From: an uncultured bacterium
Lineage (GTDB): Bacteria > Armatimonadota > DTGP01 > CAYSAW01
Length of the DNA: 64,000 nucleotides
Direction of reading: 5' to 3'
Assembly: GCA_964429225.1 (NCBI GenBank)
Contig: CAYSAW010000006.1
Location: forward strand, 89,559 to 153,558
Of the stretch, positions 16,209 to 64,000 are shown piece by piece. The notes under the pieces were generated by a model, which worked only from the letters and a program-made list of their open reading frames with translations, did no database searches and was not told the DNA's origin. The position numbers and the translations under genes are program-made. Position 1 is the first letter of the stretch, and each line of letters opens with the position of its first letter.

Positions 16209-16255
16209 CTGTAAGGAAGTGAGGGCACGTTCACCGTGCCCTCACTTCCTTACAG
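16209..16255. repeat. Perfect 21-bp inverted repeat (hairpin, 5-nt loop) immediately downstream of hflX
   Basis: CTGTAAGGAAGTGAGGGCACG-ttcac-CGTGCCCTCACTTCCTTACAG. No U-tract follows on either strand. Confidence 0.6.
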
Positions 16256-16376
16256 GGGCAAGAGAGGAGGATTTTTTCTCCTGGCGTTAAAAAGTCCTTT
16301 TGAGAAAAGAGAGACGGGAGGGAAGAATTATCTTGTTGTTTTTCCTGCGAACTTTACCTTTGAGGAGGGAGTTGAG

Positions 16377-31620: not shown

Positions 31621-32233
31621 TCTGGCGCAAAAGGGCTTCGTAATCCTCCGGATAGTCTAGGTCCTTGAGAATCGCTGGATCCTCCACCTTGACAATCAGA
31701 CGATCCTCCGAGTATTGGTGGAGAAGTTGGCGCAAGCCCCCTTCTCCCTGATATTGAAGGATCAAAGGACCATACCGCCGAAGGTCCAGGAGAATCGGAT
31801 GCCCACGTCGGTTAGCATAGGCAGGTTGGATGATACCTTTTTGTTGTTCCCTCCACTTTTGGATTAAAAGGCTGATCGTTTCTGGGCGAACGAAAGGTTG
31901 GTCACCTAAAGCGAGGAGAATAGCTTCAGCGCGGGGGAGGAGCCATTCGACCCCTACTTTAAGGGATTGGAACATCCCCTCGGTATACCGAGGGTTTTCC
32001 AGAAGGACGACATCGTATTGAAAGAGTGTAGGGGCTATCTCCTGGGCCCGGTAACCCAAGACGACGACGATCCCCTCTAGGAGGCCGGGGGCTTTAAGGG
32101 ATCTGAGCACATTCTGGAGGAGGGTTTCAGGGCCGAGAGGGAGTAGGGGTTTCAGCCGGCCCATTCGTCGGGATTCTCCCGCGGCCAAAACTAAGCCCCA
32201 AAGAGAAGGTTGTGGACGATCTGCTCTTTCCAC
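31598..32233 (-). CDS. MobA-like NTP transferase domain protein (molybdenum cofactor cytidylyltransferase MocA-like)
   Basis: N-terminus LWGLVLAAGESRRMGRLKPLLPLG. The family is typical of xdh/cox accessory genes. Confidence 0.7.
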   Translation of the reverse strand: MERADRPQPSLWGLVLAAGESRRMGRLKPLLPLGPETLLQNVLRSLKAPGLLEGIVVVLGYRAQEIAPTLFQYDVVLLENPRYTEGMFQSLKVGVEWLLPRAEAILLALGDQPFVRPETISLLIQKWREQQKGIIQPAYANRRGHPILLDLRRYGPLILQYQGEGGLRQLLHQYSEDRLIVKVEDPAILKDLDYPEDYEALLRQINPPSNG

Positions 32234-32296
32234 CGTAATTTGGGGAAGTCTTTCCCCTCTAGGCTGACCTTCCTAGAGGGGGCTCTTTTTAAAGTT

Positions 32297-33463
32297 CTAG
32301 GTATCCTTGTTGCTTTCTCCCCAGCGTTGTTCAGGACGACGCCAGGTCGAGGAGAGGGGTAGGGGTTCTCGGGTTCCGGGCGGAGGCAGTTCCTCCCCTT
32401 TTGCCCCTTTAATGCGCCGACGGCTCCGCTCTAGCACTAGTTCGGCAGCAATGCTGACAGCGATCTCCTCCACGGTAAGTGCGCCAATTTCAATCCCGAT
32501 GGGGGCTCTTACTCGGGCTAGTTGTTCAGGGGTGGTGATCCTTTCTTCTAACAATCCTTCAAAGATGAGATGGATTTTCCGCCGGCTACCGATCATCCCG
32601 ATGTAGGCAGCTGGGCTATTCACTACCTCTCTCAAAGCTACTCCATCGTGTCGGTGGCCTCGGGTGACGATGACGATATAAGTGTTAGGGGTAATAGGAA
32701 ACTGCCGTAAACCCCGAACAATATCTTCTACAATGATCTGGGAGGCTTCGGGGAAACGCTCCGAATTTGCAAAAGAAGGGCGGTCGTCAAGGACTATAAC
32801 CTCAAAGTCTAAGAAGGCTCCTAAGTGGGCTACTGCTTTCCCTATATGCCCTGCGCCAACAATCAAAAGGGTGGGTTTAGGAAGGTGGGGTTCCAAGTAG
32901 AGGGTAATCCCCTCCGAGATTTCTATAACTTTGGGTTGGGGGGCTTCTTCCTCCATCAGGGAGAAGGCCTCTGTTCGGACCCTTTCTCCTAAAAGAGGAT
33001 CCCTAAGGTTCCCCACCGTCTCTCCTGTTTCCAGAATGAGTAGGGTGTCTCCCATTTGGGTTTTATCTGGATGTTGTACCAGAGTAACTAAAACCGCTTT
33101 CTCTTTCTTACTCTGAGCTTCCAGCAATCGTTGATAGGAGGTGAGTCCTCGGGTGGGTTGAGGATCAACAAAAATCTGAGCAGTCCCTCCACAGATGAGG
33201 CCATCATCAAAGCCGTAGTCGCTATCTAGCCGAAGTTCAAAGAACTCAGGCTGCTGGGTTCTTAGGGAGTTTAGAGCACGCCGTCGGGCCTCTGCTTCTA
33301 GACAGCCTCCTCCTAAGGTTCCATAAAGGCGGCCGTCAGCACAGAAAACAGCCCGTGCCCCCGGTTTTTGAGGGGTTGAACCTTTCGTCTCTACAACTGT
33401 ACCCAGGCTGAAGGGAACCCCTTCGTCAGCTAGCCGAAGGAGATATTGGTAGAAGTTCTTCAT
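32297..33463 (-). CDS. XdhC/CoxI family molybdoenzyme maturation (Mo-cofactor insertion) protein
   Basis: XdhC N-terminal domain (FSLGTVVETKGSTPQKPGARAVFCADGRLYGTLGGGCLEAEA) plus a Rossmann-like XdhC C-terminal domain (LLIVGAGHIGKAVAHLGAFLDFEVIVLDDR). Confidence 0.8.
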   Translation of the reverse strand: MKNFYQYLLRLADEGVPFSLGTVVETKGSTPQKPGARAVFCADGRLYGTLGGGCLEAEARRRALNSLRTQQPEFFELRLDSDYGFDDGLICGGTAQIFVDPQPTRGLTSYQRLLEAQSKKEKAVLVTLVQHPDKTQMGDTLLILETGETVGNLRDPLLGERVRTEAFSLMEEEAPQPKVIEISEGITLYLEPHLPKPTLLIVGAGHIGKAVAHLGAFLDFEVIVLDDRPSFANSERFPEASQIIVEDIVRGLRQFPITPNTYIVIVTRGHRHDGVALREVVNSPAAYIGMIGSRRKIHLIFEGLLEERITTPEQLARVRAPIGIEIGALTVEEIAVSIAAELVLERSRRRIKGAKGEELPPPGTREPLPLSSTWRRPEQRWGESNKDT

Positions 33464-33546
33464 TTTTCCCTCGCTTAGTTCCGTAACCTTCTTTCCAATT
33501 TGCTGAAGGGGGTAGGGAGGTTCAATCTCCCCCTAACCGCCAAGCT

Positions 33547-34035
33547 TTAAATTCGTTTTAACCACACACTAAGACCTATGATAGTGATCGCCAAAAGAAT
33601 GTTGGTGATCAACCACTGTTTGCGTCTTGCTTGAAAGGGTTTCACCCAAGAGAAAGAGGTATTCAGAATGGTGAGGATGCCTACGAGAACCAAGACTAAG
33701 ACGACTTTAGTCAGCAGTAAAGTGCGTTTGAGGCTAGGGGTGAACAGAACTTGGTGAACTTTGATAAAATTCACCAATCCCGAGATAGTAATGAGCAGAA
33801 CACAAATCCAAACCACCCTCCGGAATTGGCTTTGGGTTTTTTCGAAGAGGATCTTTTTTTCCGGATCAGACAGGGTTTGAAGGGCTGGAAGCAGGACGAA
33901 GTAGGAATAAAAGGCTCCTCCCAAAGCGATAGCAATGGCGCTCAGGTGGATCCATTGCATTAGGATGTTCAACCATACGGGTAATTGCATCACTTTTGTC
34001 TGCTCCAAAAGTAATGATACGATAGGAGCAGGCAA
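33547..34035 (-). CDS. Small integral membrane protein (4 TM), CopD/DUF-like
   Basis: Hydropathy only; no diagnostic motif. Confidence 0.4.
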   Translation of the reverse strand: MPAPIVSLLLEQTKVMQLPVWLNILMQWIHLSAIAIALGGAFYSYFVLLPALQTLSDPEKKILFEKTQSQFRRVVWICVLLITISGLVNFIKVHQVLFTPSLKRTLLLTKVVLVLVLVGILTILNTSFSWVKPFQARRKQWLITNILLAITIIGLSVWLKRI

Positions 34036-45638: not shown

Positions 45639-47645
45639 TTAGGAACCGCATTTACATTTGCATCGAGAGGGTTCCAAGGTGCTTAAAGGCTCCAGATAGG
45701 CTTCCGTTCTTTTGGCGATTTCTTGGAACCATTCGCCATTGGGAGTTGTGAGGAGAAACCACCAAGCGGAAGGCCGGTAGTGGGTTCTCTCCAACCCTTC
45801 AACGGTGAGAAGGGCATCTCTGACGAGTTCCACTTTGATCCGGTGGGCTTCCAAGTCTAGAGTTTTCATTTGTTCCCGATCTGCTTTAATTTGGGGATCG
45901 GAGAGGAGGCGGTGGCGTTCTTCTCTCAGCTTTTGAATTTGTGCGGAATAATCCCGAATTTGTTGGTGGAGGGCTTGCCATTGGGTATCAAAGACTTTTC
46001 TCCTTTCCTGATGGGATTGGATTTCTCTCCGAAGCGCTTCTGCTTCTGGGGTATGGGATTGTTTTTGAGCCTCTAGTTCCAGCAATCGTTCTCGGAGAGG
46101 CATTACCAAGGCTCTCCAATCCCGGCCCTTCTCTCGAGCGATGGCTTCGGACTCGGCCTTCAGGGCTTTGATCTCCCAAAAGAGGCGGTGGATCTCATCT
46201 TTTAGGGCTTGAAGACGTTTACGAAGCTGGAGGATTCTCTGCCGGCTCTGGGCATATTGCTCTTTCTTGGCAGTCCATTCTTCAGGTATCCAGTTTGCCA
46301 AGAGCTGGATGAGGTCCCAGGGGCTTCGGGCCTCCTTCAGTTGGAGGAGGCGTTGTTGCTGAGATCGCCTTACTTGGCGCCAGGAATGGGCAAACTCTTC
46401 GGAAGTAATTTCTTTCTTACCGAAAGCGCGTGCGAGGTGGGGAGGGAGCCGAAAGAGGGCTTGGGTAGGTCCTACAGCGTCCCAGGTGGGATAGCGTAAG
46501 CGCAGGATGGGGTGAAGAGGGAAAGGAACCCCTCGCTGAGCAAGGGCCTGAGCCATCTTTCGAGTGCGCCATACATAAGAGGAACCAAGTTCGTTAAGAA
46601 CTACAATGAACTCACTGGCCATCATCGCGATCAGGACAACTGCTTTCCCCACCAAGGCGATTGCTTGGCCCAGGTTTTGTTCCAAGATTTCTGCGAGGTC
46701 GCAGACATTGAGGACGTCTTCCCTTGTTTTTAGGTAGAGAGGTTCATCACCAGCGATAACAATCTTTCTAGGGAGAAGGCAGAGAGTGCCGCGTCCATAT
46801 CCGGGGATGACTACATCGAAAGGGAGGGTTCCTGGGCCAAACTTATCGAGGGTGTAAATCTCGGAGCCTGCCACTGCTTCATTATAGCTCTCGCAGTAGA
46901 GGGATCGGGTAGTAGGGTTGAGGAAGCGTTGAAGGAGGAAGAAGCGAGGAGCTCGGCAGGTTTCTCGGTTAAAGCGGAACAGATCGCTGGATAAACCGAT
47001 TCTTACTCCCTCCAAAGGAGCTTGGGTAAGGGATTGGAGGAGGAATTCTGCCAAGTGGAGGTAGAGGTCTGTGAGTTTGGCTTCGGGGTGGGCTTGGGCG
47101 AAATCTTGAACCCTTTGTAAAAATTGCTCGGCCCATTGCCGAGACTTTTCAGGGGAGGGGCCGAGGAGGGATTCCAGGGATGCCTCTAAACCCCAGCGTA
47201 GCAGATCCATCAATCGGGGGAGTACCGCTTTTAGAGGGACTTCTCCTGCCAGCAGGCGTCGGGAGCCAGTGAAAACCAAGCCCCTCCACCCCCAGGCTTC
47301 CGTAATTCGATCAAGAAAGGCGTCGCGCCCTTCGGGGGAGGTCCGGGCCACTTTTTCCACCTGGGCGTTATAAGCGGTTAATTTTTCTCGAGTGGGAAGG
47401 GTTTCGCTCCCGAAGAGTTGGGAGAGTTCTCCGGTGGCTACCCACAAGTCCCGGGTGCTATGGTCGTTATGAGGAAGGATCTCAAACTCATCTTGGCCGG
47501 GATGTCCGGTAGGAGACTTAGAGAAGTAGTCTGTATCCATTACCCCCATCCAAAAGGGGGCGGGGTAACCTACCTCTCGAAGGGGTTCCAGAAGGACTGC
47601 TTTAGTTGGTTCATCCCAGAGGACCGTTTGGCCCAGGGCGACCAA
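45639..47645 (-). CDS. Hypothetical 668-aa protein with long C-terminal coiled-coil
   Basis: Coding-like composition. No recognisable catalytic motif. C-terminal heptad-rich region (…LQLRKRLQALKDEIHRLFWEIKALKAESEAIAREKG…) ends in CKCKCGS. Confidence 0.45.
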   Translation of the reverse strand: MVALGQTVLWDEPTKAVLLEPLREVGYPAPFWMGVMDTDYFSKSPTGHPGQDEFEILPHNDHSTRDLWVATGELSQLFGSETLPTREKLTAYNAQVEKVARTSPEGRDAFLDRITEAWGWRGLVFTGSRRLLAGEVPLKAVLPRLMDLLRWGLEASLESLLGPSPEKSRQWAEQFLQRVQDFAQAHPEAKLTDLYLHLAEFLLQSLTQAPLEGVRIGLSSDLFRFNRETCRAPRFFLLQRFLNPTTRSLYCESYNEAVAGSEIYTLDKFGPGTLPFDVVIPGYGRGTLCLLPRKIVIAGDEPLYLKTREDVLNVCDLAEILEQNLGQAIALVGKAVVLIAMMASEFIVVLNELGSSYVWRTRKMAQALAQRGVPFPLHPILRLRYPTWDAVGPTQALFRLPPHLARAFGKKEITSEEFAHSWRQVRRSQQQRLLQLKEARSPWDLIQLLANWIPEEWTAKKEQYAQSRQRILQLRKRLQALKDEIHRLFWEIKALKAESEAIAREKGRDWRALVMPLRERLLELEAQKQSHTPEAEALRREIQSHQERRKVFDTQWQALHQQIRDYSAQIQKLREERHRLLSDPQIKADREQMKTLDLEAHRIKVELVRDALLTVEGLERTHYRPSAWWFLLTTPNGEWFQEIAKRTEAYLEPLSTLEPSRCKCKCGS

Positions 47646-47952: not shown

Positions 47953-48345
47953 GTGATGACGACCCCAGTTTGGCCAACCCATCCCCCGAATTCCTTTCAA
48001 GAGGAGGGAGATCGGTTTGCGCGTTTTCTGAGCATTCTCGTCTTTTTAGGGGGGGTGGGAGGGCTAGGAGTTTGTTTCTATTTTGCTTGGCATATGTTGG
48101 TAGAGGCCTTTACACGCCCCTTGTCCCAGAACCTCGGGGCAGAGGTTTCCGGATGGTTGATTCGTTTGCTCTTGCTCTTGGTAATGGGGTATCTATCTTC
48201 TTCAATGGCGGGGAGAGGGATAGACCTCTATTGGGCCGCGCGGTATAAGGGGGTCTCGGCTTCTCCAGGAACGCGCATTCCCAAGGGCATCCGGGAATCG
48301 ACTCAGGTTCAGGAAGAGAAGGAGGAGGCAAAACAGGAGGGGTAA
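47953..48345 (+). CDS. Possible small 2-TM membrane protein
   Basis: ORF with two hydrophobic helices upstream of the ccoN promoter. It may be spurious. Confidence 0.25.
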   Translation: MMTTPVWPTHPPNSFQEEGDRFARFLSILVFLGGVGGLGVCFYFAWHMLVEAFTRPLSQNLGAEVSGWLIRLLLLLVMGYLSSSMAGRGIDLYWAARYKGVSASPGTRIPKGIRESTQVQEEKEEAKQEG

Positions 48346-48407: not shown

Positions 48408-48437
48408 TTGACAAAAATTTCTCAAGTTGCGTAAAAT
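48408..48437 (+). promoter_or_regulatory. Sigma70-like promoter (TTGACA-18-TAAAAT) upstream of ccoN operon
   Basis: TTGACA at 48408-48413, an 18-nt spacer, and TAAAAT at 48432-48437, about 60 nt upstream of the ccoN start. Confidence 0.5.
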
Positions 48438-48496
48438 AGGCAAGGGACAAAGGTCTCCGCCTTAAAAGCAGGGGGCACATTCTATAGGGAGGACCT

Positions 48497-49879
48497 ATGT
48501 GGAAGAGACTCTTTAGCGATGAGGAATATTCTTCAGCCCGGAACTGGCTTTATTCAGCAGCGGGATGGCTTTTAGTTGCTTTTACGATGGCTATTATCCT
48601 GGCCATCAAATTTGTTTATCCCACTTTTTTGGGAGAGCATCCCTGGCTTCAGATGGGTCGGATTCGCCCTATTCACGTGAACACTGCCGCCTTCGGTTTT
48701 CTCTCTATGGGGTTAGTAGGTTCTATCTTCTATATGATTCCCCGGCTGACCGGCGTTCCCTTATATAGTGAGCGGCTGGGGAACTTCACTTGCTGGATTT
48801 GGAACCTGACAATGGTGTTGGCGGTATTGACCTTGGCAACGGGGCATACCGAAGGGCGTGAGTATGCGGAGTTGATTGCTCCTTTAGATTGGCTAGTGCT
48901 TGCTGGGTTGATTGCGATTGCTTATAATGTATTTGGGACCATTGCCCGCAGGCAAGAGAAGCAGTTGTACATCTCCCTTTGGTACTGGATGGGGACGATG
49001 ATTTGGTTTCCCCTGGTTTTTATCATTGGGAATCGCACTTTTGTCCGTTTGTCGGGGTTGAATGACGCTGCGGTGAACTGGTTTTATGGGCACAATGTCC
49101 TCGGCTTATGGTTCACCACCTTAGGGGTGGGAGTAGCTTATTATTTAATCCCGATTATCAGTCGAAATCCCCTCTTCTCTCATAAGCTCTCTCTGATTGG
49201 TTTTTGGACCATTGCGATGGTTTATGCTCCTACCGGAGCTCATCACCTTCTCCAAGCTCCTATTCCCGAATGGTTGAAGAGTGTGGCGATTGTCTCTAGC
49301 TTGCTTCTTCTCATCCCTGTGGCGGCTGCGGTAACCAACTTCCTGGCGACTTGTAAGGGTAAATGGGATGTTGTCCTCAGTAATATCGCCCTGCGTTTTA
49401 CGGTGACGGGAGTGATTTGGTATCTGGTAACCTGTGTGCAGGGGCCTTTGCAAGCCAGCCGGCCAGTAAACTGGTATATTCACTTCAGTAACTGGGTGGT
49501 GGGACACGCTCACGTAGCTTTGCTTGGCTCTTTCGCTTACTTTGTCTGGGGGGCTTTCTATCATATTATTCCGAGAATTACAGGGAAAGACTGGTACAGC
49601 CGGCCTCTTCAGGAAGCTCACTATTGGTTAACCACTTTGGGTTTCTTCTTCTTCTTCTCTGCTTTGACTATTGCGGGGCTCCAACAGGCGGCGATGTGGC
49701 GGGAGAATGTCGGCTTCTTAAAAGTGGTCATCGCAATGAAGCCGATGATGGTTCTCCGGATGTTGTCCGGCGCTGCTATGGTCGTTGGTCAGTATATCTT
49801 TGTGTATAACCTCTATCGAACCGTTACTGCTCGAGCCGAAGTTCCTGAGGAGGCGGTAGCGGTTCCTGCCCGGGCCTAA
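48497..49879 (+). CDS. ccoN: Heme-copper oxidase subunit I, cbb3-type (CcoN-like)
   Basis: Twelve TM helices. His ligands are at canonical HCO positions: helix II RPIHVNT, helix VI WFYGHNVLGLWF, helix VII GAHHLLQ and helix X WVVGHAHVALLG. A CcoO-type subunit follows immediately. Confidence 0.85.
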   Translation: MWKRLFSDEEYSSARNWLYSAAGWLLVAFTMAIILAIKFVYPTFLGEHPWLQMGRIRPIHVNTAAFGFLSMGLVGSIFYMIPRLTGVPLYSERLGNFTCWIWNLTMVLAVLTLATGHTEGREYAELIAPLDWLVLAGLIAIAYNVFGTIARRQEKQLYISLWYWMGTMIWFPLVFIIGNRTFVRLSGLNDAAVNWFYGHNVLGLWFTTLGVGVAYYLIPIISRNPLFSHKLSLIGFWTIAMVYAPTGAHHLLQAPIPEWLKSVAIVSSLLLLIPVAAAVTNFLATCKGKWDVVLSNIALRFTVTGVIWYLVTCVQGPLQASRPVNWYIHFSNWVVGHAHVALLGSFAYFVWGAFYHIIPRITGKDWYSRPLQEAHYWLTTLGFFFFFSALTIAGLQQAAMWRENVGFLKVVIAMKPMMVLRMLSGAAMVVGQYIFVYNLYRTVTARAEVPEEAVAVPARA

Positions 49880-49906
49880 GAAAGAAGGGGAGGCAGTAAA
49901 GAATCT

Positions 49907-50965
49907 ATGACGGGGCCACAAACTTACGGAGTTGGAATTGTTGCTGTTGCGGTACTCTTCGTCCTGATCTATGGATGGATGGTTTATAAGAGTACCCGCC
50001 ATGCTCTCGTTTCGGTGGTCATTATTGGGTCGGTGTTCATCTTTGCCGCGGTCGTTTTTGGAACGATCGTCCTCCCTTATATCACCTTTCAGCCAGCCCC
50101 TTCTCCAGGAATGAGGCCTTACACTCCTTTGGAGCTCATCGGGAGGGATATTTATCGCCGAGAGGGTTGCTGGTATTGCCACAGCCAGTTTACTCGTCCC
50201 CAGGATCGGGACTTCGGTCTTCCTTCGGATGCGGGGGATTATGTTTACGATAGCCCTCACCTATTAGGCACGGAGCGGACAGGGCCTGACCTCTCGAATA
50301 TCGGGGGTAAGTTCCCGGATGAGTGGCACCGGATTCACCATCGGGATCCCCGGGCGGTGCAGCCGGGTTCAATTATGCCCTCCTTTGCTTATCTTGACCG
50401 TGCTTGGGCTTCTCCGGACCCTAATGATAAGCGTTTTTGGATCTACGATCCCAAGGAGGGCCGGATGCGACGAGCCACGGAGCTGGATGCTCTAGTGGCC
50501 TACCTTCAGAGTCTGGGGACGCGGCGGGAGAAGGTTCGTTTGACCACTGAGCCGGAGATTCCCAATGAGTATCGCTTCCAGTATCTTCCCAAAGAGGGGC
50601 GTTATGTGGAGCGGAGGGCACCAGATGCCATCCCCTTTAAGCTCCGGTTCGTGAAGCAGGGTCAAGGAATTTATAATGAGAAGTGTGCTCCGTGCCACGG
50701 ACCTAGGGGTTATGGCAACGGTACCAATGCCCGAGATCTAGTGGTCAAACCTGCTAACTTCCATCTCCCTCAATTTAGAAATTATTCTGAAGCTAAGTGG
50801 TTCTGGAGGATTAGTGAGGGGGTCCCGGGAACGAGAATGCCACCCTGGCAGTTCACTCTGACGGAGGAACAACGATGGTATCTCGTCCGCTGGCTTCAGT
50901 TCCTCTCCGGGTCCTACCGAGACCCTAAAACGGGGGAGCGTGTTCTTATACCACCTAGAGGTTAA
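49907..50965 (+). CDS. ccoO: cbb3 oxidase monoheme subunit CcoO fused to an additional C-terminal monoheme cytochrome c domain
   Basis: N-terminal TM. The FixO/CcoO signature REGCWYCHSQFTRP…GPDLSNIGGKFPDEWHRIHHRDPRAVQPGSIMPSFAYL is present. A second heme site, CAPCHGPRG, lies in the C-terminal 120 aa. Confidence 0.8.
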   Translation: MTGPQTYGVGIVAVAVLFVLIYGWMVYKSTRHALVSVVIIGSVFIFAAVVFGTIVLPYITFQPAPSPGMRPYTPLELIGRDIYRREGCWYCHSQFTRPQDRDFGLPSDAGDYVYDSPHLLGTERTGPDLSNIGGKFPDEWHRIHHRDPRAVQPGSIMPSFAYLDRAWASPDPNDKRFWIYDPKEGRMRRATELDALVAYLQSLGTRREKVRLTTEPEIPNEYRFQYLPKEGRYVERRAPDAIPFKLRFVKQGQGIYNEKCAPCHGPRGYGNGTNARDLVVKPANFHLPQFRNYSEAKWFWRISEGVPGTRMPPWQFTLTEEQRWYLVRWLQFLSGSYRDPKTGERVLIPPRG

Positions 50966-50970
50966 CTCTT

Positions 50971-51246
50971 ATGATCAAGCGATATACTGGTGTGCTCACA
51001 ATGGCCTTGATGAGTGGAGTGGTCAAAGCCCTTGCGGATCGTCCTCCGGAGGTTGCCGATAAGCTGAACTTTGACCCTGGTCCTTCAGTGGTTTTGGTAT
51101 CTAGTATGCTTGGAATCTTTGCGGTGGTGGGAATCGCTGGGTTGTATTGGGCCTACCGTCATGGCCAGTTTAAGGAGGTAGAGGAGGCCAAGTATCGGAT
51201 GCTTGATGTGGAAACCCGTTACCCTGTTAAGAAGACGGGAAGGTGA
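50971..51246 (+). CDS. Small single-TM protein, CcoQ/FixQ-like
   Basis: TM helix VVLVSSMLGIFAVVGIAGLYWAY followed by a charged tail (RHGQFKEVEEAKYRML) resembles FixQ. The true start may be an internal Met. Confidence 0.35.
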   Translation: MIKRYTGVLTMALMSGVVKALADRPPEVADKLNFDPGPSVVLVSSMLGIFAVVGIAGLYWAYRHGQFKEVEEAKYRMLDVETRYPVKKTGR

Positions 51247-51261
51247 CAAGGTGAGTTTTGA

Positions 51262-51552
51262 GTGATTCAAGGAGGTTGCAGGATGGCCGAGGAAAGGAAG
51301 GAATCCCAGGAAGAGCAGAAGAGTAACGGACCTGTTAAGGCAATTAAGCAGGCAGCCGAAGCGATTGAGCAGGAGGTTAAAGGGGAAATTGCTGATGAGG
51401 AGCACCAGATGGGCCCCTTTAAACACCCGGAGTCAGTAATGGTAGCAGGCATCGAGGAGCGGGTAGGAGTTGTTCCTAAATGGTTAGTTTATATCTTTGT
51501 GGGGATCTTGCTGGTTGCTGCTGTTGCGTGGGTGAGGATCTATGGATACTAA
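51262..51552 (+). CDS. Small C-terminally anchored membrane protein
   Basis: Acidic N-terminal region and a single C-terminal TM (WLVYIFVGILLVAAVAWV). It lies within the operon. Confidence 0.3.
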   Translation: MIQGGCRMAEERKESQEEQKSNGPVKAIKQAAEAIEQEVKGEIADEEHQMGPFKHPESVMVAGIEERVGVVPKWLVYIFVGILLVAAVAWVRIYGY

Positions 51553-52639
51553 GATGAGGCAAAAGATATTCTTAGGTTTAGGTTTGTTTCTCCTCTTTGG
51601 ATCTTGGGGGATTCTAGGAGGGTGTAGTTCCCGAACCCAGTTGTCAGTAAAGACAACCGAACAACCTGTCCTCACTAAAGTGTCTCAAGAGCGCTTGTCT
51701 TTCCAAAATCAAGCTGCAGCCAGCCCGGATGTTAAGGAGCTGAGTGCTATTCCTCAGGTCTCTTTGGATCCCGAGAAGGCGAAACATACTCCTTTAGAAC
51801 AACGAGAAGATGGAGAAGCAGTCTACCTCAAGTTTTGCGCTAGTTGTCATGGTTCCAATGGTGAAGGAACTCCTCAGGTTCCTCGCCCTAACTTTAAGGA
51901 CCTCGATTATATGAGGGAGGTTACCCCTTTGGGGTTGTTTAACGCAATTAAATATGGGAAGAAGGTGAACTTCCCTCACTATAAAGGGATTCATCATCGC
52001 CACGAGCAAGAGTTAGCCACGAATCTGGAGGAAGAGATCCTTCCTGAGGGTCGGCATGAGTTTGGGGGAAGAGGTCGGGCCTTACAGGCTCAGAATAAAC
52101 AACCCTTATCCAATCAAGAGATCTGGAATGTAGTGATGTACCTCTTCTTCCAGTCTGCTGCCAAAGATAAGCAGGATGTCTACCGCCAGATCCTTAAACT
52201 GGCTGGTCCGGACAAAGCGAAGGAAGTTTTGAAGCCGGAAAACACTTTTCCTGTGGCTGTAGTGATGTTAATGAGCGCCCAAGGTGCTTTATTTGACCGC
52301 AATTGCTCCGTCTGTCATGGGAAGCGAGGACAAGGAGATGGCAACCTCGCTCGTACCTTGGAGCCGAAGCCGAGAAACTTTACCGATTTTGGTTGGATGG
52401 CTGACAAGTCCCCCAGTCATCTGTTTTACAGTATTACCTTTGGTCGAAGATATACCGCAATGCTGGCTTGGGGAGATCGCTTGGGAAATCACTTCCCTGG
52501 GGATCCCGAACTACCGGGGGATCAGAAGATCCGGGCTCACGATTTATCTTTGACCGATGAGGAGCGGTGGGCCATTGCGAATTATCTCCGAGCTTTTACC
52601 TATGAACCACCTCGAAGGATTGTTGTAGAAGCGCAGTAG
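51542..52639 (+). CDS. Diheme cytochrome c lipoprotein (CcoP-like)
   Basis: Lipoprotein signal with lipobox LGGC. Two CxxCH sites: CASCHGSNGEG and CSVCHGKRGQGDG. Confidence 0.75.
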   Translation: MDTKMRQKIFLGLGLFLLFGSWGILGGCSSRTQLSVKTTEQPVLTKVSQERLSFQNQAAASPDVKELSAIPQVSLDPEKAKHTPLEQREDGEAVYLKFCASCHGSNGEGTPQVPRPNFKDLDYMREVTPLGLFNAIKYGKKVNFPHYKGIHHRHEQELATNLEEEILPEGRHEFGGRGRALQAQNKQPLSNQEIWNVVMYLFFQSAAKDKQDVYRQILKLAGPDKAKEVLKPENTFPVAVVMLMSAQGALFDRNCSVCHGKRGQGDGNLARTLEPKPRNFTDFGWMADKSPSHLFYSITFGRRYTAMLAWGDRLGNHFPGDPELPGDQKIRAHDLSLTDEERWAIANYLRAFTYEPPRRIVVEAQ

Positions 52640-52654
52640 CTCAATGGAGGAGCT

Positions 52655-53353
52655 GTGATGAATAGAAGAACTCTCTTTCTCCGATTTCTCAACTGGGTTG
52701 CTGGTTTACCCGTGGTCGTTGGATTACTGGCAGCTATTTCTCCGATTCTGAGGGTTTTGCGTCCCACTCTGCAACCCTTTCAGTTCAATCAACCCCCGGA
52801 CCCTCCTCCGGGCGAACCTCAGGTTGTAGGGAATATCAGTGAGTTTAAGGAGGTATGGGCTTATAAGTCTTTTTACTTTGTCCAGAGAAACCGGGAGTAC
52901 TCCCCCCGGAGAGTGAATGAGAGTTTGATTGCGGGCTTTGCGGTCCGTTTGCCTCAAGATGTGGCCCAAAAGGCAGGAGATTACATCGCTGCTTCTGCTC
53001 AAAGTCCAGAGCAGAAGGCCACTGCTGAGGCGATCCGTAAGACGGGAGTTATGCTCTTCAGTCGGATTTGCCCTCACTTAGGGTGCAACTTTAATTACTT
53101 CCCTCCGGAGAAGTCGGAGAAGGTACGTGCCGATTACAATTACTCCGGTGCCCAAAGTGACCGGGCCTATTTTGCTTGCCCCTGCCATTTCAGCACGTAT
53201 GACTTAAAGCAGTTCCAGGATGTGTTGGGGCAGATGAAGCTGGGGAAAGTGGTCAACGGCCCTGCCCCTCGTCCTCCTCGTACTTTCACCTTTGAAGTAA
53301 GGGACAACGGAGATATTGTGGTTACAGGAGTGGAGGCTGGCGGTGTTGCGTAA
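52655..53353 (+). CDS. Rieske [2Fe-2S] iron-sulfur protein, TAT-exported
   Basis: Twin-arginine signal MMNRRTLFLRFLNWVAG. Rieske boxes CPHLGC and CPCHFS. Confidence 0.8.
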   Translation: MMNRRTLFLRFLNWVAGLPVVVGLLAAISPILRVLRPTLQPFQFNQPPDPPPGEPQVVGNISEFKEVWAYKSFYFVQRNREYSPRRVNESLIAGFAVRLPQDVAQKAGDYIAASAQSPEQKATAEAIRKTGVMLFSRICPHLGCNFNYFPPEKSEKVRADYNYSGAQSDRAYFACPCHFSTYDLKQFQDVLGQMKLGKVVNGPAPRPPRTFTFEVRDNGDIVVTGVEAGGVA

Positions 53354-54809
53354 ACGAGCTCGAGAATTGTGGGAAACCTTTACTACCTGGTACGCCGAAC
53401 AAGGGGAAAAACTAGACTTATTCGACGAGACCGAAGTAGAACGGCAGAGAGAATCCCCTTGGTTCCTGATGGGACCAATGGCCTATCTCTTCTGGATTGC
53501 TACCATCGTTACCGGTTTCTTTCTGGTGATCTATTATATTCCTACTCCGAGCAGAGCCTGGAATAGCCTAGGGTACATCCAAAATGAGGTTCCCCTAGGA
53601 TGGCTTTTTCGGGGAGTGCATAAATACGCTGCTGATGCCTTTATTATCGCCATCACGATGCGTATCTACCGGATGTACTTCACTGCTGAGTACCGTCGGG
53701 GGAAGCAGCTCACCTGGATAGTGGCTATCCTCCTCTTGGTCTTTGGGATGTTTTCAGGCCTTACAGGGTATCTACTTCAGTGGAATCAACGGGCTTACTG
53801 GGCAACAAAAGTCTTCGGAACTTTCCCTACTTACCTCAATGAGCCTTATATCCCCCATTTGAATATCGGTCGAACCATCTCTTCCATCCTTCTTGGAGGG
53901 CCTGCTATCGGCCCTGCGACCATCACCCGGTGGTATTCCGGCCATTACGCTCTGTCTCTGATCTTGCTCATCCTGGCTGAATTGCATTTCCAGCGGCTGG
54001 GATGCAAACGTTTGAATATGAGCCGGTTCGCTATTTTCATTACCCTTCTGATCCCTACTGCGGTAGCAACAATTATCCCCAGCCCTATGGGCCGTCCTGC
54101 AGACCCTAGCACAACCCCTGAAAGGATTTTCTCTGACTGGTACTTCTTAGCGCTTTACCATACTTATCGAATTATGGATCCCTTCTGGGCCACTTTAATG
54201 ACCGTATTACTGCCTCCGATAGCTTTTGCAGTGGCCTTCCTGGATAGGCGCGGTACTCGCGAACCCTTAGGCCGGCCTTTCGTCTTTCTCTTCGGTTTGC
54301 TCTGTATCTTCTACTGGTTGGGGTTCTCTACTTTGCTTATTATGAACATTGCAGATATTAACCGAAACCCCATCCAGTTTATGACGGTAGCGGCGATGAT
54401 GACCATTGTTGCGGCCCTTTGGCAGGTGGTTCATTCGGCTCGGAGGCCTTGGGAAACCCGGCCTTTCCCAGAGGCGATGGATGGTGTTGTTTTAGCCTCT
54501 TGGTTCCTTTGGGGGGTCAATGTACACCATCTCTTTGAACTGGTGCGGAGAGGGGGCTTCTCTCATTTGGCTCGTTTCCCCAATGATATTGCGATGTTCT
54601 TTGTCCTAGGAACAACCTCCCTTATTCTTTTGGGGTTGTCCCTTTACGATATTCGCCGGGCCAAGAAGGGAGTATCCGCCCCGGAACGCCCTGCTGTTTC
54701 AGCGGAGCCTCCTTCCATCGGTTTGCCCGGCCGTTATGCAATGCTGTATCTGGCTGTCTTCTTCTGTGTTATGTTGATCGCCGGTTTTGGGCTTATCGCG
54801 GAGTTCTGA
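53316..54809 (+). CDS. Cytochrome b (long form, b + subunit IV fused) of a Rieske/cyt b complex
   Basis: GYLLQWNQRAYWATKVFG matches the cyt b PEWY-region neighbourhood. Helix D has H-x13-H (HYALSLILLILAELH). Helix B has H-x13-R (HKYAADAFIIAITMR), so one canonical His is replaced by Arg (codon CGT at 53661-53663). The probable start is GTG 53343 (GGAGG SD), giving an 11-nt overlap with the Rieske gene. Confidence 0.8.
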   Translation: MWLQEWRLAVLRKRARELWETFTTWYAEQGEKLDLFDETEVERQRESPWFLMGPMAYLFWIATIVTGFFLVIYYIPTPSRAWNSLGYIQNEVPLGWLFRGVHKYAADAFIIAITMRIYRMYFTAEYRRGKQLTWIVAILLLVFGMFSGLTGYLLQWNQRAYWATKVFGTFPTYLNEPYIPHLNIGRTISSILLGGPAIGPATITRWYSGHYALSLILLILAELHFQRLGCKRLNMSRFAIFITLLIPTAVATIIPSPMGRPADPSTTPERIFSDWYFLALYHTYRIMDPFWATLMTVLLPPIAFAVAFLDRRGTREPLGRPFVFLFGLLCIFYWLGFSTLLIMNIADINRNPIQFMTVAAMMTIVAALWQVVHSARRPWETRPFPEAMDGVVLASWFLWGVNVHHLFELVRRGGFSHLARFPNDIAMFFVLGTTSLILLGLSLYDIRRAKKGVSAPERPAVSAEPPSIGLPGRYAMLYLAVFFCVMLIAGFGLIAEF

Positions 54810-55095
54810 GGCAAGGATGAGGTTTCGCTATCATTATTGGATCTGCTTTATCATCGCCACTTTATCCCTCAGCCATCTCTTTGCGGTTTATCGGCAGGTA
54901 GTGGAGGGGTCTTCCCCTTTACTCTGGCCCCTCCTCCGAGGGTTGTTGGCCCTGACCTTAATGGTTCTCTGCTTCTTTCTGATGGGCTTAGACCTCTATG
55001 CCCGCGAGAAGAGGAGAGGGCAGATTCAGCATACCCTCTCTTTTTATGAAAAGATTTTAAGTAAACACGATAAAGGGGAGCGTACAAAGGGATGA
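54787..55095 (+). CDS. Small 2-TM membrane protein
   Basis: Hydropathy only. It is within the operon, tightly packed, and overlaps its neighbours. Confidence 0.3.
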   Translation: MGLSRSSEARMRFRYHYWICFIIATLSLSHLFAVYRQVVEGSSPLLWPLLRGLLALTLMVLCFFLMGLDLYAREKRRGQIQHTLSFYEKILSKHDKGERTKG

Positions 55096-55397
55096 AAAGA
55101 GAACCTCCTTGGTTTCGCCAGCTGATGATCTTGTTTTGGGGGCTTTGTTCCCTCTTAAGCCTTGTCCTGGCTCTCTGGATGGCCAAAATTGAACTACAAT
55201 CTGCCTTGCCCCAGGATCCTAGAACTAAAGGAGTGGTGACTAATATCCCCAGCGAACTTCTGCGTCAGCGTCGAGAGCAGTGGCAAAGGAATAGTATTCT
55301 GATAGGAGCCCTTTTTCTGACCTCTGCCTTTGGTATGCTAGCGGTCAAATGGTATGAATATCCCGGGCCTGTAACTCGCCCGGAAGAAGAGTCGTGA
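55092..55397 (+). CDS. Small 2-TM membrane protein
   Basis: Hydropathy only. It overlaps its neighbours by 4 nt and 1 nt. Confidence 0.3.
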   Translation: MKREPPWFRQLMILFWGLCSLLSLVLALWMAKIELQSALPQDPRTKGVVTNIPSELLRQRREQWQRNSILIGALFLTSAFGMLAVKWYEYPGPVTRPEEES

Positions 55398-55398
55398 T

Positions 55399-56676
55399 GT
55401 GGAGCCTTTTATCATTCGCTGGGACTTTTCAGTCTGGAATGATCTGGAAACTAACCCATTCCAAGAGGTGACCTATATGTACCGTAAGTTTCTGGACCTA
55501 ACTCTTAAGACCTGGCATTGGTTGGATCGTGCTTGCAACGCCCTTTTCCCTCACAACTGGAACCCGATGTACTACCTGGGAGGCATAACCAACCTCTATA
55601 TGTGGGTGTGTATGATTTCAGGGGTGATACTTTTTCTCTATTACACTCCCAGTCTTACCGAAGCGTATAAAACGGTCCGATTTTTCACTGAAGAAGTGCC
55701 TTATGGTGTGGTAATGCGAGGGATCCATCGCTATGGTGCGGATGCAATGATGCTGTTCTTGCTCCTCCATATGTTCCGCACCTGGTTTACTTATCGTCAT
55801 AGCAAGTTCCGAATGGTGGCTTGGGTCTCCGGGGTTATCCTCTTTGCCCTAACCCTTTTGATTGGGGTAACTGGATATATTATGCCCTGGGACTTACGGG
55901 CGCGTTTCCTTAATGATGTTACAGTTTCGGCTTTCCACACCCTGGACACTTTGCCAGTTTTAGGAGCTTTGGGAGTAGGAGCTTGGCTAGGGAATTTCTT
56001 CCAGGGGGGATCGGTTATCAGCGACTTTACTTTAACTCGATTTCTCTTCTTCCACATCACCTTTGCAACAGCTTTGTTCTTCTTCCTTTGGATGCACTAT
56101 ATTCGGATCAATCGGCCCATTGTTTACCCTCCTGCTCTGCTTACCATTGGTTTGATTGGAGCAGTTTTGGTAGCTGCTGGGGCCTCCCCGGCTCTGCTCA
56201 GTGCAGAGGGGCCTCCTGCTCCAACAGGAGTTGAGCCGGTTTTACAGGTTTCTAATGTGCCGATGGATTGGTTCTTTCTCTTTGGTTACCACTTTATGTC
56301 GGTCATCCCACCGGTCGTGGTTTTAGGATTGTTTGTTCTCGTTTTCCTCGGTTTGTTCCTCGTTCCTTACTTCTTGAAAGAGGATTACCGAAACGTGGTT
56401 GTTGTTCATCCGGAGCTTTGTACAGGTTGTACCCTGTGTGCTGTGGATTGTCATGCGAATGCTATTATTATGGTGCCGATGCCGGGAAAGAAGCGGGGAC
56501 GCAACTTACTGGCTAAGGTGATTGCTCCTCGCTGTGCGGAGTGCGGTATTTGTGTGGGTTCCTGTGCTTTTGGGGCCATTGAGTTGCCTTTGCTACCCGA
56601 TAAGGTGATTGAAAACCGGATCTTTGCCGCCTTAGCTCCTTCAACGACTTCATCGGAGTCTCAAGTAAAAGCTTAG
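55399..56676 (+). CDS. Cytochrome b fused to C-terminal 2x[4Fe-4S] ferredoxin domain
   Basis: Cyt b core with both His pairs intact (HRYGADAMMLFLLLH and HITFATALFFFLWMH, each H-x13-H) and PWD in place of PEWY. The C-terminal 90 aa carry CTGCTLCAVDCHANAI and CAECGICVGSCAFGAI, two CxxCxxCxxxC clusters. Confidence 0.8.
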   Translation: MEPFIIRWDFSVWNDLETNPFQEVTYMYRKFLDLTLKTWHWLDRACNALFPHNWNPMYYLGGITNLYMWVCMISGVILFLYYTPSLTEAYKTVRFFTEEVPYGVVMRGIHRYGADAMMLFLLLHMFRTWFTYRHSKFRMVAWVSGVILFALTLLIGVTGYIMPWDLRARFLNDVTVSAFHTLDTLPVLGALGVGAWLGNFFQGGSVISDFTLTRFLFFHITFATALFFFLWMHYIRINRPIVYPPALLTIGLIGAVLVAAGASPALLSAEGPPAPTGVEPVLQVSNVPMDWFFLFGYHFMSVIPPVVVLGLFVLVFLGLFLVPYFLKEDYRNVVVVHPELCTGCTLCAVDCHANAIIMVPMPGKKRGRNLLAKVIAPRCAECGICVGSCAFGAIELPLLPDKVIENRIFAALAPSTTSSESQVKA

Positions 56677-56739
56677 AAGAGAGGCGATAGGTTGTTAGCA
56701 TAGCTTCAAAAGAATTTCTGACTTTAGGATGAGGAGAAG

Positions 56740-57180
56740 ATGGCTGAGGAACCTCGGATTATAGGCTTTGTCTGTGATTGGGCTGTCTCCACGGAGGGCG
56801 AGCTCGACGAGAACAACAACCTCAAGGCTTTGCCTCACGTTAACATTATTAAGGTACCCTGTTCCGGTTACGTGAAGAGCGAGTGGCTGGAACTAGCCTT
56901 AAGAAGCGGTGCTAAGGGAGTTTTCGTCGTCGGTTGCCCTATTATCGACTGCCACTACCGGGAGGGGAATAAGTGGGTTCGAGACCGGGTTCGGATGATT
57001 CGTCCTCCGAAGCTGAACCCACGCCGAGGAGGAGATCCCAACCGGGTGAGATGTTTCTTCCGGCAGTTGATTGAAACTTCCTCGCTTATCGAGGATTTGA
57101 AACAGTTTACCGAGGAGCTGAAGGAATACGAGGCGAGTCTTGTTCGGAATTCAGCTCCTGCACAGCCAGCACAAAAATAG
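56740..57180 (+). CDS. MvhD/FlpD-like iron-sulfur protein (methyl-viologen-reducing hydrogenase delta-subunit family)
   Basis: IIGFVCDWAV…VPCSGYV…VVGCPIIDCHYREGN matches the Cys pattern of MvhD-family [2Fe-2S] proteins. Confidence 0.65.
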   Translation: MAEEPRIIGFVCDWAVSTEGELDENNNLKALPHVNIIKVPCSGYVKSEWLELALRSGAKGVFVVGCPIIDCHYREGNKWVRDRVRMIRPPKLNPRRGGDPNRVRCFFRQLIETSSLIEDLKQFTEELKEYEASLVRNSAPAQPAQK

Positions 57181-63678: not shown

Positions 63679-64000
63679 GGGGGCGATGGGTCTCGACAGG
63701 GAGCTGTTTGGCAGGAGTGGCAGGCCGAGGTGCCGAAGGCCTCGTAAAAATCGGCAACCGATAAGTGCCAACAATTACGGCTACGCTCTCGCTGCCTAAT
63801 TAAAGAGCAGCGCGTCCGCGCGGACCCTGGCCGGGGGAGCCAAAGCGGGCGTGTCTAAACCGGCCTCCTCATCCCTAATAGCCCACGTTGGGGATGGGCA
63901 GAAAAGAGTGGGCTAGCTCCGGCGGATCCTGCTCGTGGGAGCCAAAGGAGCAAAGTTCAAAACACGAGCTAAGCCTGTAGAAGCTTCTGCGGGACGCTCT
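63679..64000 (+). ncRNA. ssrA: tmRNA (ssrA), 5' portion; continues past window end
   Basis: The 5' GGGGGCGA acceptor-stem start and GGCCUCGUAAAAA element match tmRNA. The resume-codon context AUAAGU|GCC sets a tag ORF at 63767-63796: GCC AAC AAT TAC GGC TAC GCT CTC GCT GCC TAA, encoding ANNYGYALAA with the canonical ALAA end. A TATAAT -10 lies at 63660-63665. Confidence 0.85.

Follow-up and report, generated by a model that had tools for sequence, protein, structure and literature searches.

The window analysed here, a stretch of 64,000 nucleotides (64 kb) from an uncultured Armatimonadota bacterium, carries at positions 48497-57180 of its plus strand a genuine respiratory operon that is conserved over many bacterial phyla. 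The eleven co-directional open reading frames (ORFs) in the window's ORF list at this place encode the CcoN and CcoO subunits of a cbb3-type oxidase, a FixS/CcoS-like protein, a FixP_N-like anchor, a diheme cytochrome c and a Rieske protein, followed by a long cytochrome b, a pair of small membrane proteins, a second cytochrome b fused to a ferredoxin, and an MvhD-type protein. Textbook Rieske/cytochrome b complexes are symmetric dimers with two b hemes per subunit. Judged from its sequence, this operon encodes one cytochrome b that is predicted to be unable to bind the inner heme in the usual way, together with a paralogue that carries a putative cytoplasmic iron-sulfur (FeS) wire. On balance, we favor a reading in which the module would carry electrons from membrane quinol to O2 by way of a cbb3 oxidase and a non-canonical Rieske/cytochrome b complex, the two cytochromes b being paired in a predicted heterodimer. 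Such a module probably works otherwise than by a textbook Q cycle. Set beside all characterised systems, the operon is a variant of the Rieske/cytochrome b plus cbb3 theme.

Two dissimilar cytochromes b and the proposed electron path

The long cytochrome b is made up of a b6 part, a subunit IV part and additional C-terminal helices. When it was aligned to cytochrome b6, H102 and H210 fell on the ligands of heme bp (bL), while the site of b6 His100, a ligand of the inner heme bH, was occupied by R116, and helix B offered no other His beside this replaced position. Among 47 orthologues, position 116 is Arg in 36 and Lys in 11, and in none is it His; at position 224, on the n-side of helix D, 41 have Tyr, Phe or Arg, and only five of the 47, the window's protein among them, have His. 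H102, H210 and E222 are each present in all 47, as is the motif S273-D274-W275-Y276 of the quinol oxidation (Qo) site (S-D-W-Y-F-L overall, with Ser in place of Pro), and the cd loop of this site is also strongly conserved. The parsimonious reading of these residues is a one-heme protein, predicted to hold bL only, with an intact Qo site; the conserved Arg/Lys116-Glu222 pair may occupy the bH pocket. The missing bH ligands had been overlooked in an earlier note on this DNA.

We then asked how widely the helix-B replacement is distributed, using a HMMER scan of 1.8 billion representatives (a library at 50% identity) from which 148 representatives were compared. Arg or Lys stood at the helix-B column in every full-length member of the closest ~25 representatives (E < about 1e-37), with one more distant Arg/Lys outlier in the representative library (P0281), and all canonical cytochromes b inspected just below the closest clade had His there. 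On these alignments, the loss of the helix-B bH ligand is specific to the clade nearest the long cytochrome b.

The four-His, two-heme feature of bc1 and b6f cytochromes b, which the long subunit lacks, is present in the second cytochrome b, where H110, H124, H219 and H233 are kept in 56 of 56 orthologues. The eight Cys of its ferredoxin domain (341, 344, 347, 351, 379, 382, 385 and 389) are kept in 55-56 of the 56, and its ef loop reads M-D-W-F, with D290 kept in 55. An AlphaFold2 model of this protein (pLDDT 84.4, pTM 0.79) presented six long helices followed by a beta/alpha domain, and its first ~300 aligned residues superposed on helices A-F of bc1 cytochrome b. From the b6-type topology and the six helices, the 2x[4Fe-4S] domain is predicted to lie on the cytoplasmic side. 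A fold search with this protein returned ordinary cytochromes b only, with no solved structure carrying a fused ferredoxin and no close homologue solved. We also considered binding of a b6f-type heme cn and rejected it for both cytochromes b, as neither has a Cys at the CxGG site (L-M-G-P in the long subunit, Y-Y-L-G-G in the second).

The gene for the MvhD-type protein is separate and lies 63 nt 3' of the second cytochrome b/ferredoxin gene. Its product matches PF02662 at 92.1 bits (cut-off 22.3), and at least 90% of the 47 orthologues compared keep C12, C41, C66 and C71. Its solved relatives (1e-17 to 4e-8) are [2Fe-2S] connector subunits of Mvh/Hdr-type complexes, and from these structures we infer a cluster of the [2Fe-2S] type.

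On the high-potential side, the Rieske protein scores just under the PF00355 cut-off (19.2 against 20.3 bits) and matches TIGR01416 at 5.3e-8. Its motifs, C139-P-H-L-G-C144 and C175-P-C-H178, contain the cluster ligands and the disulfide cysteines, and C139, H141, C144, C175, C177 and H178 are invariant in 46 of 46 orthologues; a twin-arginine motif (NRRTLFL) and a transmembrane helix (14-32) make up a Tat signal/anchor. The diheme cytochrome c is likewise below the cut-offs of its families (TIGR00782 ccoP, 1.9e-11 and 43.8 bits against 180; QcrC, 2.1e-8), with CXXCH motifs at C99 and C255 and a lipobox at L-G-G-C28, and it accompanies the Rieske/cytochrome b genes even in loci without an adjacent cbb3 oxidase. 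Because no homologue of cytochrome c1 or f was found among the cluster proteins with Pfam and NCBIfam, the diheme cytochrome c is the sole candidate acceptor for the Rieske cluster predicted in the operon, which fits direct wiring to the oxidase.

In the mechanism that we propose, the two cytochromes b would form a heterodimeric (asymmetric b/b') core, by analogy with the homodimeric core of bc1 and b6f, and quinol would be oxidised at the Qo site of the long subunit. The high-potential electron would pass from the Rieske cluster to the diheme cytochrome c, the CcoO-cytochrome c fusion, CcoN and O2. Since a long subunit with a Qo site and bL, yet without bH, would give the second electron no other outlet, this electron would have to cross from bL to bL' and on to bH' of the second subunit. 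From bH' it could either reduce quinone at an n-side site or exit through the 2x[4Fe-4S] domain and the MvhD [2Fe-2S] cluster to a cytoplasmic partner; electrons could equally well enter by this FeS/MvhD route, as proposed for ferredoxin-fed cyclic flow in b6f. In the homodimeric core of bc1 and b6f, the two bL hemes lie within electron-transfer distance, and bL-bL electron transfer in bc1 dimers has reportedly been demonstrated by experiment. The second cytochrome b would be the obvious partner because it is co-inherited, shares the fold, has a full predicted heme pair and bears a cytoplasmic FeS wire. Given that the long cytochrome b lacks bH ligands, the low-potential electron probably travels mainly through the ferredoxin-bearing one, which would then be more than an accessory. 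In its N-terminal cytoplasmic part, the long subunit also contains an acidic motif (D34, F36, D37 and E38, within residues 34-38) kept in at least 93% of 47 orthologues, and one might speculate that the ferredoxin domain or MvhD docks there.

If the two subunits do pair, the operon would encode a natural asymmetric bc complex with compulsory b-to-b electron transfer and a non-quinone outlet or inlet for the low-potential electron, and would bear directly both on the means by which a Q cycle escapes short circuits and on the question of quinol-based bifurcation to acceptors in the cytoplasm. If a more ordinary reading holds, it would be a divergent complex III-IV operon of a kind already met in genome surveys.

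Conservation of the module and competing readings

To survey related loci, ORFs were called in each fetched locus and matched to the eleven window proteins. The block that begins with the diheme cytochrome c and Rieske genes, continues with the long cytochrome b and the small protein(s), and ends with the second cytochrome b/ferredoxin and a separate mvhD gene was intact in about 50 species-level loci from several phyla, its order being unbroken throughout L002-L057, and the gene order recurred at 36-52% identity in metagenome contigs and in species-representative genomes. The carriers are labeled as Armatimonadota, Deinococcales, Vampirovibrionales/Melainabacteria, Holophagaceae/Acidobacteria, Sysuimicrobiota, Fervidifonticultor and a 'Symbiobacterium' metagenome-assembled genome (MAG); the closest relatives of the window's genes are Armatimonadota/Chloroflexota MAG proteins, at 46-52% identity. 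At least six named lineages have the module as an inherited block, and its patchy taxonomic spread may reflect lateral transfer. This co-conservation upholds the view that the second cytochrome b/ferredoxin and MvhD belong to the module and are not passengers.

Based on the same survey, the cbb3 genes are linked to the Rieske/cytochrome b genes in about 34 of about 44 informative loci. CcoN-CcoO stand 5' of the Rieske/b module in about 29 loci and 3' of it in five (L010, L024, L030, L042 and L050), and in about ten others (e.g., L017, L021, L026-L029, L031, L041 and L055) no cbb3 was found within 10 kb. The earlier note had read the joint encoding of the oxidase and the Rieske/b genes as the sign of an obligate supercomplex: the joint encoding is indeed conserved, but with a downstream oxidase in some loci and none within 10 kb in others, "obligate" is a reasonable yet putative reading. 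The extra electron branch proposed in that note is likewise reasonable and putative. As the block is kept in those ten or so loci, the second cytochrome b/ferredoxin and MvhD go with the Rieske/b genes and not with the oxidase.

More distant relatives of the second cytochrome b, at 30-35% identity, are single polypeptides of 510-740 aa in which a cytochrome b, a 2x[4Fe-4S] ferredoxin and an FlpD/MvhD domain are fused. This fusion was seen in hundreds of distant relatives, and it thereby ties MvhD functionally to the cytochrome b/ferredoxin. All four His, the D-W-[FY] motif and all eight Cys are retained in the fusion proteins. For one of them, more than 5000 relatives were retrieved at E < 1e-20, most of which carry the annotation 'hydrogenase iron-sulfur subunit'. 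In about 30 loci (L058-L091) from Aquificaceae, Nitrospinota, Alpha- and Gammaproteobacteria, Chloroflexota and a spirochaete, the immediate neighbor of the fusion gene is a heme-copper oxidase of the CuA type (its subunit II has the motif CNEFCGIGH), accompanied by SenC/Sco1 and often by CtaB and NirS (for example L067 2086-7382, L059 2170-11965 and L089 5708-11285). The order subunit II, subunit I, SenC, fusion equals that of the norSY-senC-orf1 sNOR cluster of ammonia oxidisers, and, going by gene order only, the fusion protein is probably 'orf1'. For N. europaea, where the locus tags of a review table proved to be shifted, the unnamed gene that follows senC is NE0681, and O2 limitation induces it along with the oxidase. 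NE0681 is a candidate for the fusion protein; text searches brought no confirmation, and a protein search returned unnamed MAG proteins only. The literature searched contained no mention of a link between the fusion family and CuA-type oxidase/SenC clusters. The operon thereby offers a lead on a family that has more than 5000 metagenome relatives and that stands beside sNOR-type oxidases, enzymes relevant to N2O and low-O2 physiology.

The same family has been met twice in studies of cytochrome b evolution. Kao & Hunte 2014 (PMC4122944) describe a 'PDWF-FeS clade' of cytochromes b fused to 4Fe-4S and MvhD domains, with no Rieske neighbor and no function assigned, and Dibrova et al. 2017 (PMC5600118) a 'subfamily H' of large cytochrome-b-containing proteins without an assigned function. 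The four His, the xDW[FY] motif, the eight Cys and the FlpD domain place the window's second cytochrome b and MvhD in this family. Like the window pair, the PDWF-FeS clade is tied to a heme-copper oxidase, there of the CuA type, with SenC and often CtaB and NirS. In that clade, however, the protein is a single polypeptide of 510-740 aa with no Rieske or long cytochrome b gene nearby, whereas in the window MvhD is separate and the Rieske gene lies 2 kb 5'.

Several observations weigh against a heterodimer. The window's long cytochrome b keeps H224, one of the two bH ligands, and the long subunit still conserves G53, the glycine that in canonical cytochromes b packs on the n-side heme, such that something may yet fill this pocket. 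On its own p-side, the second cytochrome b retains Qo-type motifs (GYxxxWD; D290) and may thus oxidise quinol independently. No HdrA-like flavoprotein or other obvious partner of MvhD is encoded in the 64 kb, and neither an HdrA-like flavoprotein nor a hydrogenase was found in the cluster, in the window or in the related loci inspected; apart from the operon, the window resembles a sugar-using heterotroph. In a Vampirovibrionales MAG (L020 9962-12090), the second cytochrome b/ferredoxin gene and mvhD stand alone next to rpoC1/rpoC2, with no Rieske, long cytochrome b or oxidase genes within 10 kb. This locus, together with the distant fusions that have no Rieske gene nearby, indicates that the pair is an autonomous module in at least some settings. 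Lastly, the two cytochromes b could form two separate homodimers, the heterodimer and the supercomplex both being predicted only.

These observations lend themselves to another reading, which we consider less probable but the most serious of the alternatives, namely that the operon encodes two independent machines that share only the quinone pool: a cbb3 oxidase with a simplified Rieske/cytochrome b reductase, and a separate cytochrome b/ferredoxin-MvhD module in the style of NarI, QmoC or DsrMK. The latter would oxidise quinol on the p-side and deliver both electrons to an acceptor in the cytoplasm, by way of its two b hemes, 2x[4Fe-4S] and MvhD. A diheme cytochrome b with a cytoplasmic FeS wire is an established design (NarGHI, HdrED, DsrMK and QmoABC). 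The unit standing alone in L020, the retained Qo-type motifs, the fused form without a Rieske or long cytochrome b gene nearby in about 30 loci, and the PDWF-FeS clade, likewise reported without a Rieske neighbor (Kao & Hunte 2014, PMC4122944), all agree with such a split. However, a lone long subunit with Qo and bL but no bH would be left without an outlet for the second electron, and yet its bL ligands and Qo motif are kept in 47 of 47 orthologues. Moreover, the pair is not separated from the Rieske/long-b genes in about 50 loci, small genes with 1-4 nt junctions lie between the two cytochromes b, and no cytoplasmic terminal reductase is encoded alongside in the 64 kb.

The heterodimer can also be taken further, to a version that we regard as unlikely. 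Here the two cytochromes b would be an obligate heterodimer with a division of labor, the long subunit giving the Rieske-served Qo site and the short subunit the sole exit on the cytoplasmic side. The low-potential electron of every quinol would then leave via FeS/MvhD, so that quinol bifurcation driven by O2 reduction at the attached cbb3 would replace the Q cycle, and the fused unit would have an equivalent task beside thousands of sNOR-type oxidases.

Somewhat more unlikely still is a role of the second cytochrome b/ferredoxin and MvhD as biogenesis or maintenance factors for heme-copper oxidases, for instance as a reductant for copper or heme insertion, like CcoG. The relatives of the pair almost always adjoin heme-copper oxidases of two families (cbb3 and the CuA-type, sNOR-like enzymes), they occur in a block with the assembly genes SenC/Sco1 and CtaB/UbiA, and in window-related loci FixS/CcoS and a CcoI-like P-type ATPase flank the cluster. 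A CcoG homologue was seen neither in these loci nor in the window (which also has no hydrogenase, CcoI or SenC gene), and the N. europaea gene after senC, if it is the fusion, is co-induced with the oxidase under O2 limitation. This possible identity could not be confirmed, though, and about ten loci without a cbb3 oxidase within 10 kb still pair the cytochrome b/ferredoxin and MvhD with the Rieske/long-b genes. Furthermore, the pair sits amid structural genes and not beside ccoS or ccoI, a full Qo-type pocket with two b hemes would be elaborate for a chaperone-like role, and the missing bH of the long subunit demands a catalytic partner.

The oxidase half and described relatives

The closest solved relative of CcoN is P. 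stutzeri CcoN (3mk7_A, 8e-79), followed by other cbb3 chains, including 8smr_E and 6xkw_n (down to 3e-67). Six His (H60, H199, H249, H250, H337 and H339) align with P. stutzeri H60, H207, H257, H258, H345 and H347, the ligands for the low-spin heme b, heme b3 and CuB. The helix-7 Tyr lies in Y243-A-P-T-G-A-H249-H250, spaced as in Y251...H257-H258 of 3mk7_A, and these His and Tyr residues are kept in 27-28 of 33 aligned orthologues. This cross-linking Tyr (Y-x5-HH) of the C-family is absent from NO reductases. By these residues, the window's CcoN is a C-family (cbb3) oxidase subunit with a complete active site and a predicted O2 reductase. In CcoO, PF02433 covers residues 42-165 (1.6e-41) and the extra cytochrome c domain residues 250-331 (PF00034, 4.7e-14), with CXXCH motifs at C88 and C260; the fusion scores 173.7 bits against NF011054 ('bifunctional subunit II/cytochrome c'). 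With TIGR00780 at 318 bits against a cut-off of 583 for CcoN and TIGR00781 at 149 against 201 for CcoO, both fall below the curated equivalog cut-offs and are, by profile score, divergent members of their families.

This divergence leaves room for a very improbable alternative, in which the oxidase half would be a nitric oxide reductase or another non-O2 enzyme and the module denitrifying rather than aerobic. Apart from the low TIGR00780 score, it could draw on the NO reductase side activity reported for cbb3 enzymes and on the NirS and sNOR-like enzymes that adjoin distant relatives of the second cytochrome b/ferredoxin. Against it, the top solved relatives are all cbb3 CcoN chains while NorB chains reach only 1e-9 to 3e-7, the three CuB His and the helix-7 Tyr are all present, CcoO is encoded, and the 64-kb window contains no nir or nor genes. 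On these grounds we rejected an identity of the CcoN-like protein with NorB, which the earlier note had named as a finding that would overturn its proposal.

The gene-product names that had been given to the eleven ORFs proved essentially correct in profile searches, save for two small proteins. The 91-aa protein, labeled CcoQ-like, matches FixS/CcoS (PF03597, 27 bits against a cut-off of 23.1), so that an identity as CcoQ is not obvious, and its homologues are placed after CcoO or, in Holophagaceae, after MvhD. The 96-aa protein, called a small anchor, is indeed a one-helix membrane protein and, more precisely, bears a weak likeness to the N-terminal anchor of CcoP (PF14715 FixP_N, 18.5 bits against 24.9). 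The CcoP subunit seems to be split into this FixP_N-like anchor and the diheme lipoprotein, both of them putative assignments under the cut-offs. Downstream of mvhD, related loci have a gene for a CcoI-like copper P-type ATPase together with YtkA and DsbD_2 genes, and 5' of ccoN they have a FixS/CcoS gene (L005 11918-15467, L002 6003-8477 and L003 2540-2716); these neighbors do not occur in the window.

The operon type itself is not new, which the earlier note had overlooked. It is the 'complex III-IV operon' described, with two cytochromes b, for aerobic Melainabacteria (Soo et al. 2017, in the quotation of bioRxiv 10.1101/531145; Matheus Carnevali et al. 2019, PMC6349859, Supplementary Note 6), where it is given as a C-family oxidase with 'two cytochrome bc oxidases' or as ccoNO next to 'petB, petB, petC'. 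It has ccoN and ccoO in common with the window, besides a petC-like Rieske gene and two genes of the petB type; the passages themselves do not mention a ferredoxin domain, MvhD or missing heme ligands. Two Vampirovibrio loci in our survey (L036 and L040) have the gene order from CcoN to MvhD as in the window, with a second cytochrome b that is 38-39% identical. Melainabacteria are nonetheless not nearest to the window, whose closest relatives are the Armatimonadota/Chloroflexota MAG proteins. Nothing in the literature searched says that the long subunit of the III-IV operon is without bH ligands, or that it is partnered by a ferredoxin fusion with MvhD behind it; on a cytochrome b-MvhD-Rieske-cbb3 module, no paper was found, only an appendix domain listing and the PDWF-FeS remark.

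Among solved structures, the bc1-cbb3 supercomplexes of Rhodobacter capsulatus and Pseudomonas aeruginosa (6xkw, 8smr) share with the window the path from quinol through Rieske/b and cytochrome c to cbb3 and O2, and their chains match the window's CcoN and both cytochromes b. They differ in being encoded in separate operons and in having a homodimeric two-heme cytochrome b and a cytochrome c1, without a ferredoxin domain or MvhD. The actinobacterial bcc-aa3 complexes (QcrCAB with CtaCDEF; 6adq, 7q21) resemble the window in their direct wiring, with a diheme cytochrome c in place of c1 and a soluble carrier, in a long cytochrome b with extra C-terminal helices, and in the Asp of the Qo motif (xDWY), a residue associated with menaquinol use (Kao & Hunte 2014, PMC4122944). 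However, their oxidase is of the aa3 type, their two-heme cytochrome b is homodimeric, and they have neither a second cytochrome b nor an FeS/MvhD branch. A precedent for the replacement of a helix-2 n-side heme His, there by Glu or Gln, is found in the cyanobacterial 'subfamily K' (Dibrova et al. 2017, PMC5600118), but that is a short four-helix protein of another clade, without an assigned function and with no link to an oxidase or an FeS-bearing paralogue.

Further parallels come from other membrane systems. NarI-NarH, HdrE-HdrD, DsrM-DsrK and QmoC, like the window's second cytochrome b, link the quinone pool to cytoplasmic FeS clusters through two b hemes, and the MvhD-like domain of QmoB is a [2Fe-2S] connector of the same type as in the window. 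Cytochromes b of the NarI/HdrE type, in contrast, belong to a fold family other than bc1/b6 and have no Qo-type site and no Rieske partner. The anammox complexes R/b-2 and R/b-3 are also Rieske/b complexes with extra redox subunits, and it has reportedly been proposed that they send the low-potential quinol electron to a cytoplasmic acceptor, a bifurcation based on quinol; they differ in their FAD/NAD(P)-binding and multiheme subunits and their normal b hemes, and their cluster is not known to include MvhD or cbb3.

Gene layout, assembly and surroundings

The listed genes are all present on the plus strand (Table 1), which bears out the co-directional, tightly packed cluster described earlier: spacing within it ranges from a 38-nt overlap to a 63-nt gap. 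The earlier note spoke of twelve genes, although its own list holds eleven, and eleven ORFs were found. The 5' neighbor lies on the opposite strand, and the next 3' gene, for a short-chain dehydrogenase, starts 321 nt after mvhD. Of the single consensus-like promoter that had been proposed, the motif is present and agrees with the consensus at 11 of 12 positions, but such sites are rarer in the scanned region than in shuffled sequence (4 against 7.4), and for this reason the match alone proves nothing. No FNR-type box was visible by eye 5' of ccoN, and a consensus scan found no terminator 3' of mvhD (folding z-score -0.39).

Table 1. Features of the respiratory operon, in window positions
Feature	Coordinates	Strand	Size	Domains and remarks
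Sigma-70-like promoter candidate	48408-48437	+		TTGACA-18-TAAAAT; 60 nt 5' of ccoN; consensus match only
Putative ribosome-binding site	48488-48494	+		GGGAGGA; precedes first ATG (ccoN)
CcoN	48497-49879	+	460 aa	about 12 transmembrane helices; PF00115 4.5e-87; TIGR00780 318 bits
CcoO (mono-heme c) fused to class I cytochrome c domain	49907-50965	+	352 aa	PF02433, PF00034
FixS/CcoS-like protein	50971-51246	+	91 aa	one transmembrane helix (40-58); PF03597
FixP_N-like anchor	51262-51552	+	96 aa	C-terminal transmembrane helix (75-93); PF14715
Diheme cytochrome c lipoprotein, CcoP-like/QcrC-like	51542-52639	+	365 aa	two PF13442/PF00034 domains
Rieske [2Fe-2S] protein	52655-53353	+	232 aa	PF00355, TIGR01416
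Long cytochrome b	53316-54809	+	497 aa	about 10 transmembrane helices; PF00033 2.3e-34, PF00032 1e-6; start possibly 53343 instead of 53316
Small membrane protein	54787-55095	+	102 aa	two transmembrane helices (17-35, 52-70); alternative start 54817
Small membrane protein	55092-55397	+	101 aa	two transmembrane helices (11-29, 67-85)
Second cytochrome b (helices A-F) with C-terminal 2x[4Fe-4S] ferredoxin	55399-56676	+	425 aa	PF00033 2.8e-31, Fer4_9/Fer4_7
MvhD/FlpD-type [2Fe-2S] connector	56740-57180	+	146 aa	predicted cytoplasmic; PF02662 3.4e-26

That the cluster is an assembly artefact joining separate operons, a possibility raised earlier, has a negligible probability and was rejected: the 202,707-bp NCBI contig carrying the window and two independent Logan assemblies, L092 (SRR11582145, from the 5' neighbor gene through ccoN to the Rieske gene) and L001 (SRR11582147, from the diheme cytochrome c through mvhD and beyond), agree at every junction, including that between the cbb3 and Rieske genes, the same gene order recurs in dozens of unrelated genomes from several phyla, and GC content is flat across the region.

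The two small membrane proteins between the cytochromes b have no Pfam or NCBIfam match. Homologues of the 102-aa protein are detectable at the equal position in most related loci, and a gene of similar size takes the position of the 101-aa protein in L002, L003, L005 and L007.

Upstream of the operon and divergent from it lies a 668-aa ORF (45639-47645, minus strand) with no Pfam domain, and just 5' of the promoter-like site a 130-aa membrane ORF (47953-48345, plus strand); both were also called in L092 and L093. Elsewhere in the window, an AAA_5 ATPase (17148-18827, plus strand) followed by a McrC-family protein (18958-20172, plus strand) constitutes an McrBC-type restriction pair. It is preceded by a protein with a prepilin-type N-terminal methylation motif and a DUF1559 domain (16236-17102, plus strand), a family abundant in Planctomycetota-like and Armatimonadota-like genomes and, besides the operon's nearest homologues, the sole taxonomic hint in the window. 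A 1562-aa protein (8279-12967, plus strand) combines Peptidase_M28 and FtsX-like permease domains in an unusual architecture. At 31598-34035 on the minus strand, a MobA-like NTP transferase, an XdhC-family maturation protein and a CopD-like membrane protein stand in a row, by their domains a predicted molybdenum-cofactor/copper handling cluster with no enzyme gene nearby. The sole Rfam match is a tmRNA gene (RF00023, 127 bits) at 63679-64000 on the plus strand, its 3' end cut by the window edge.

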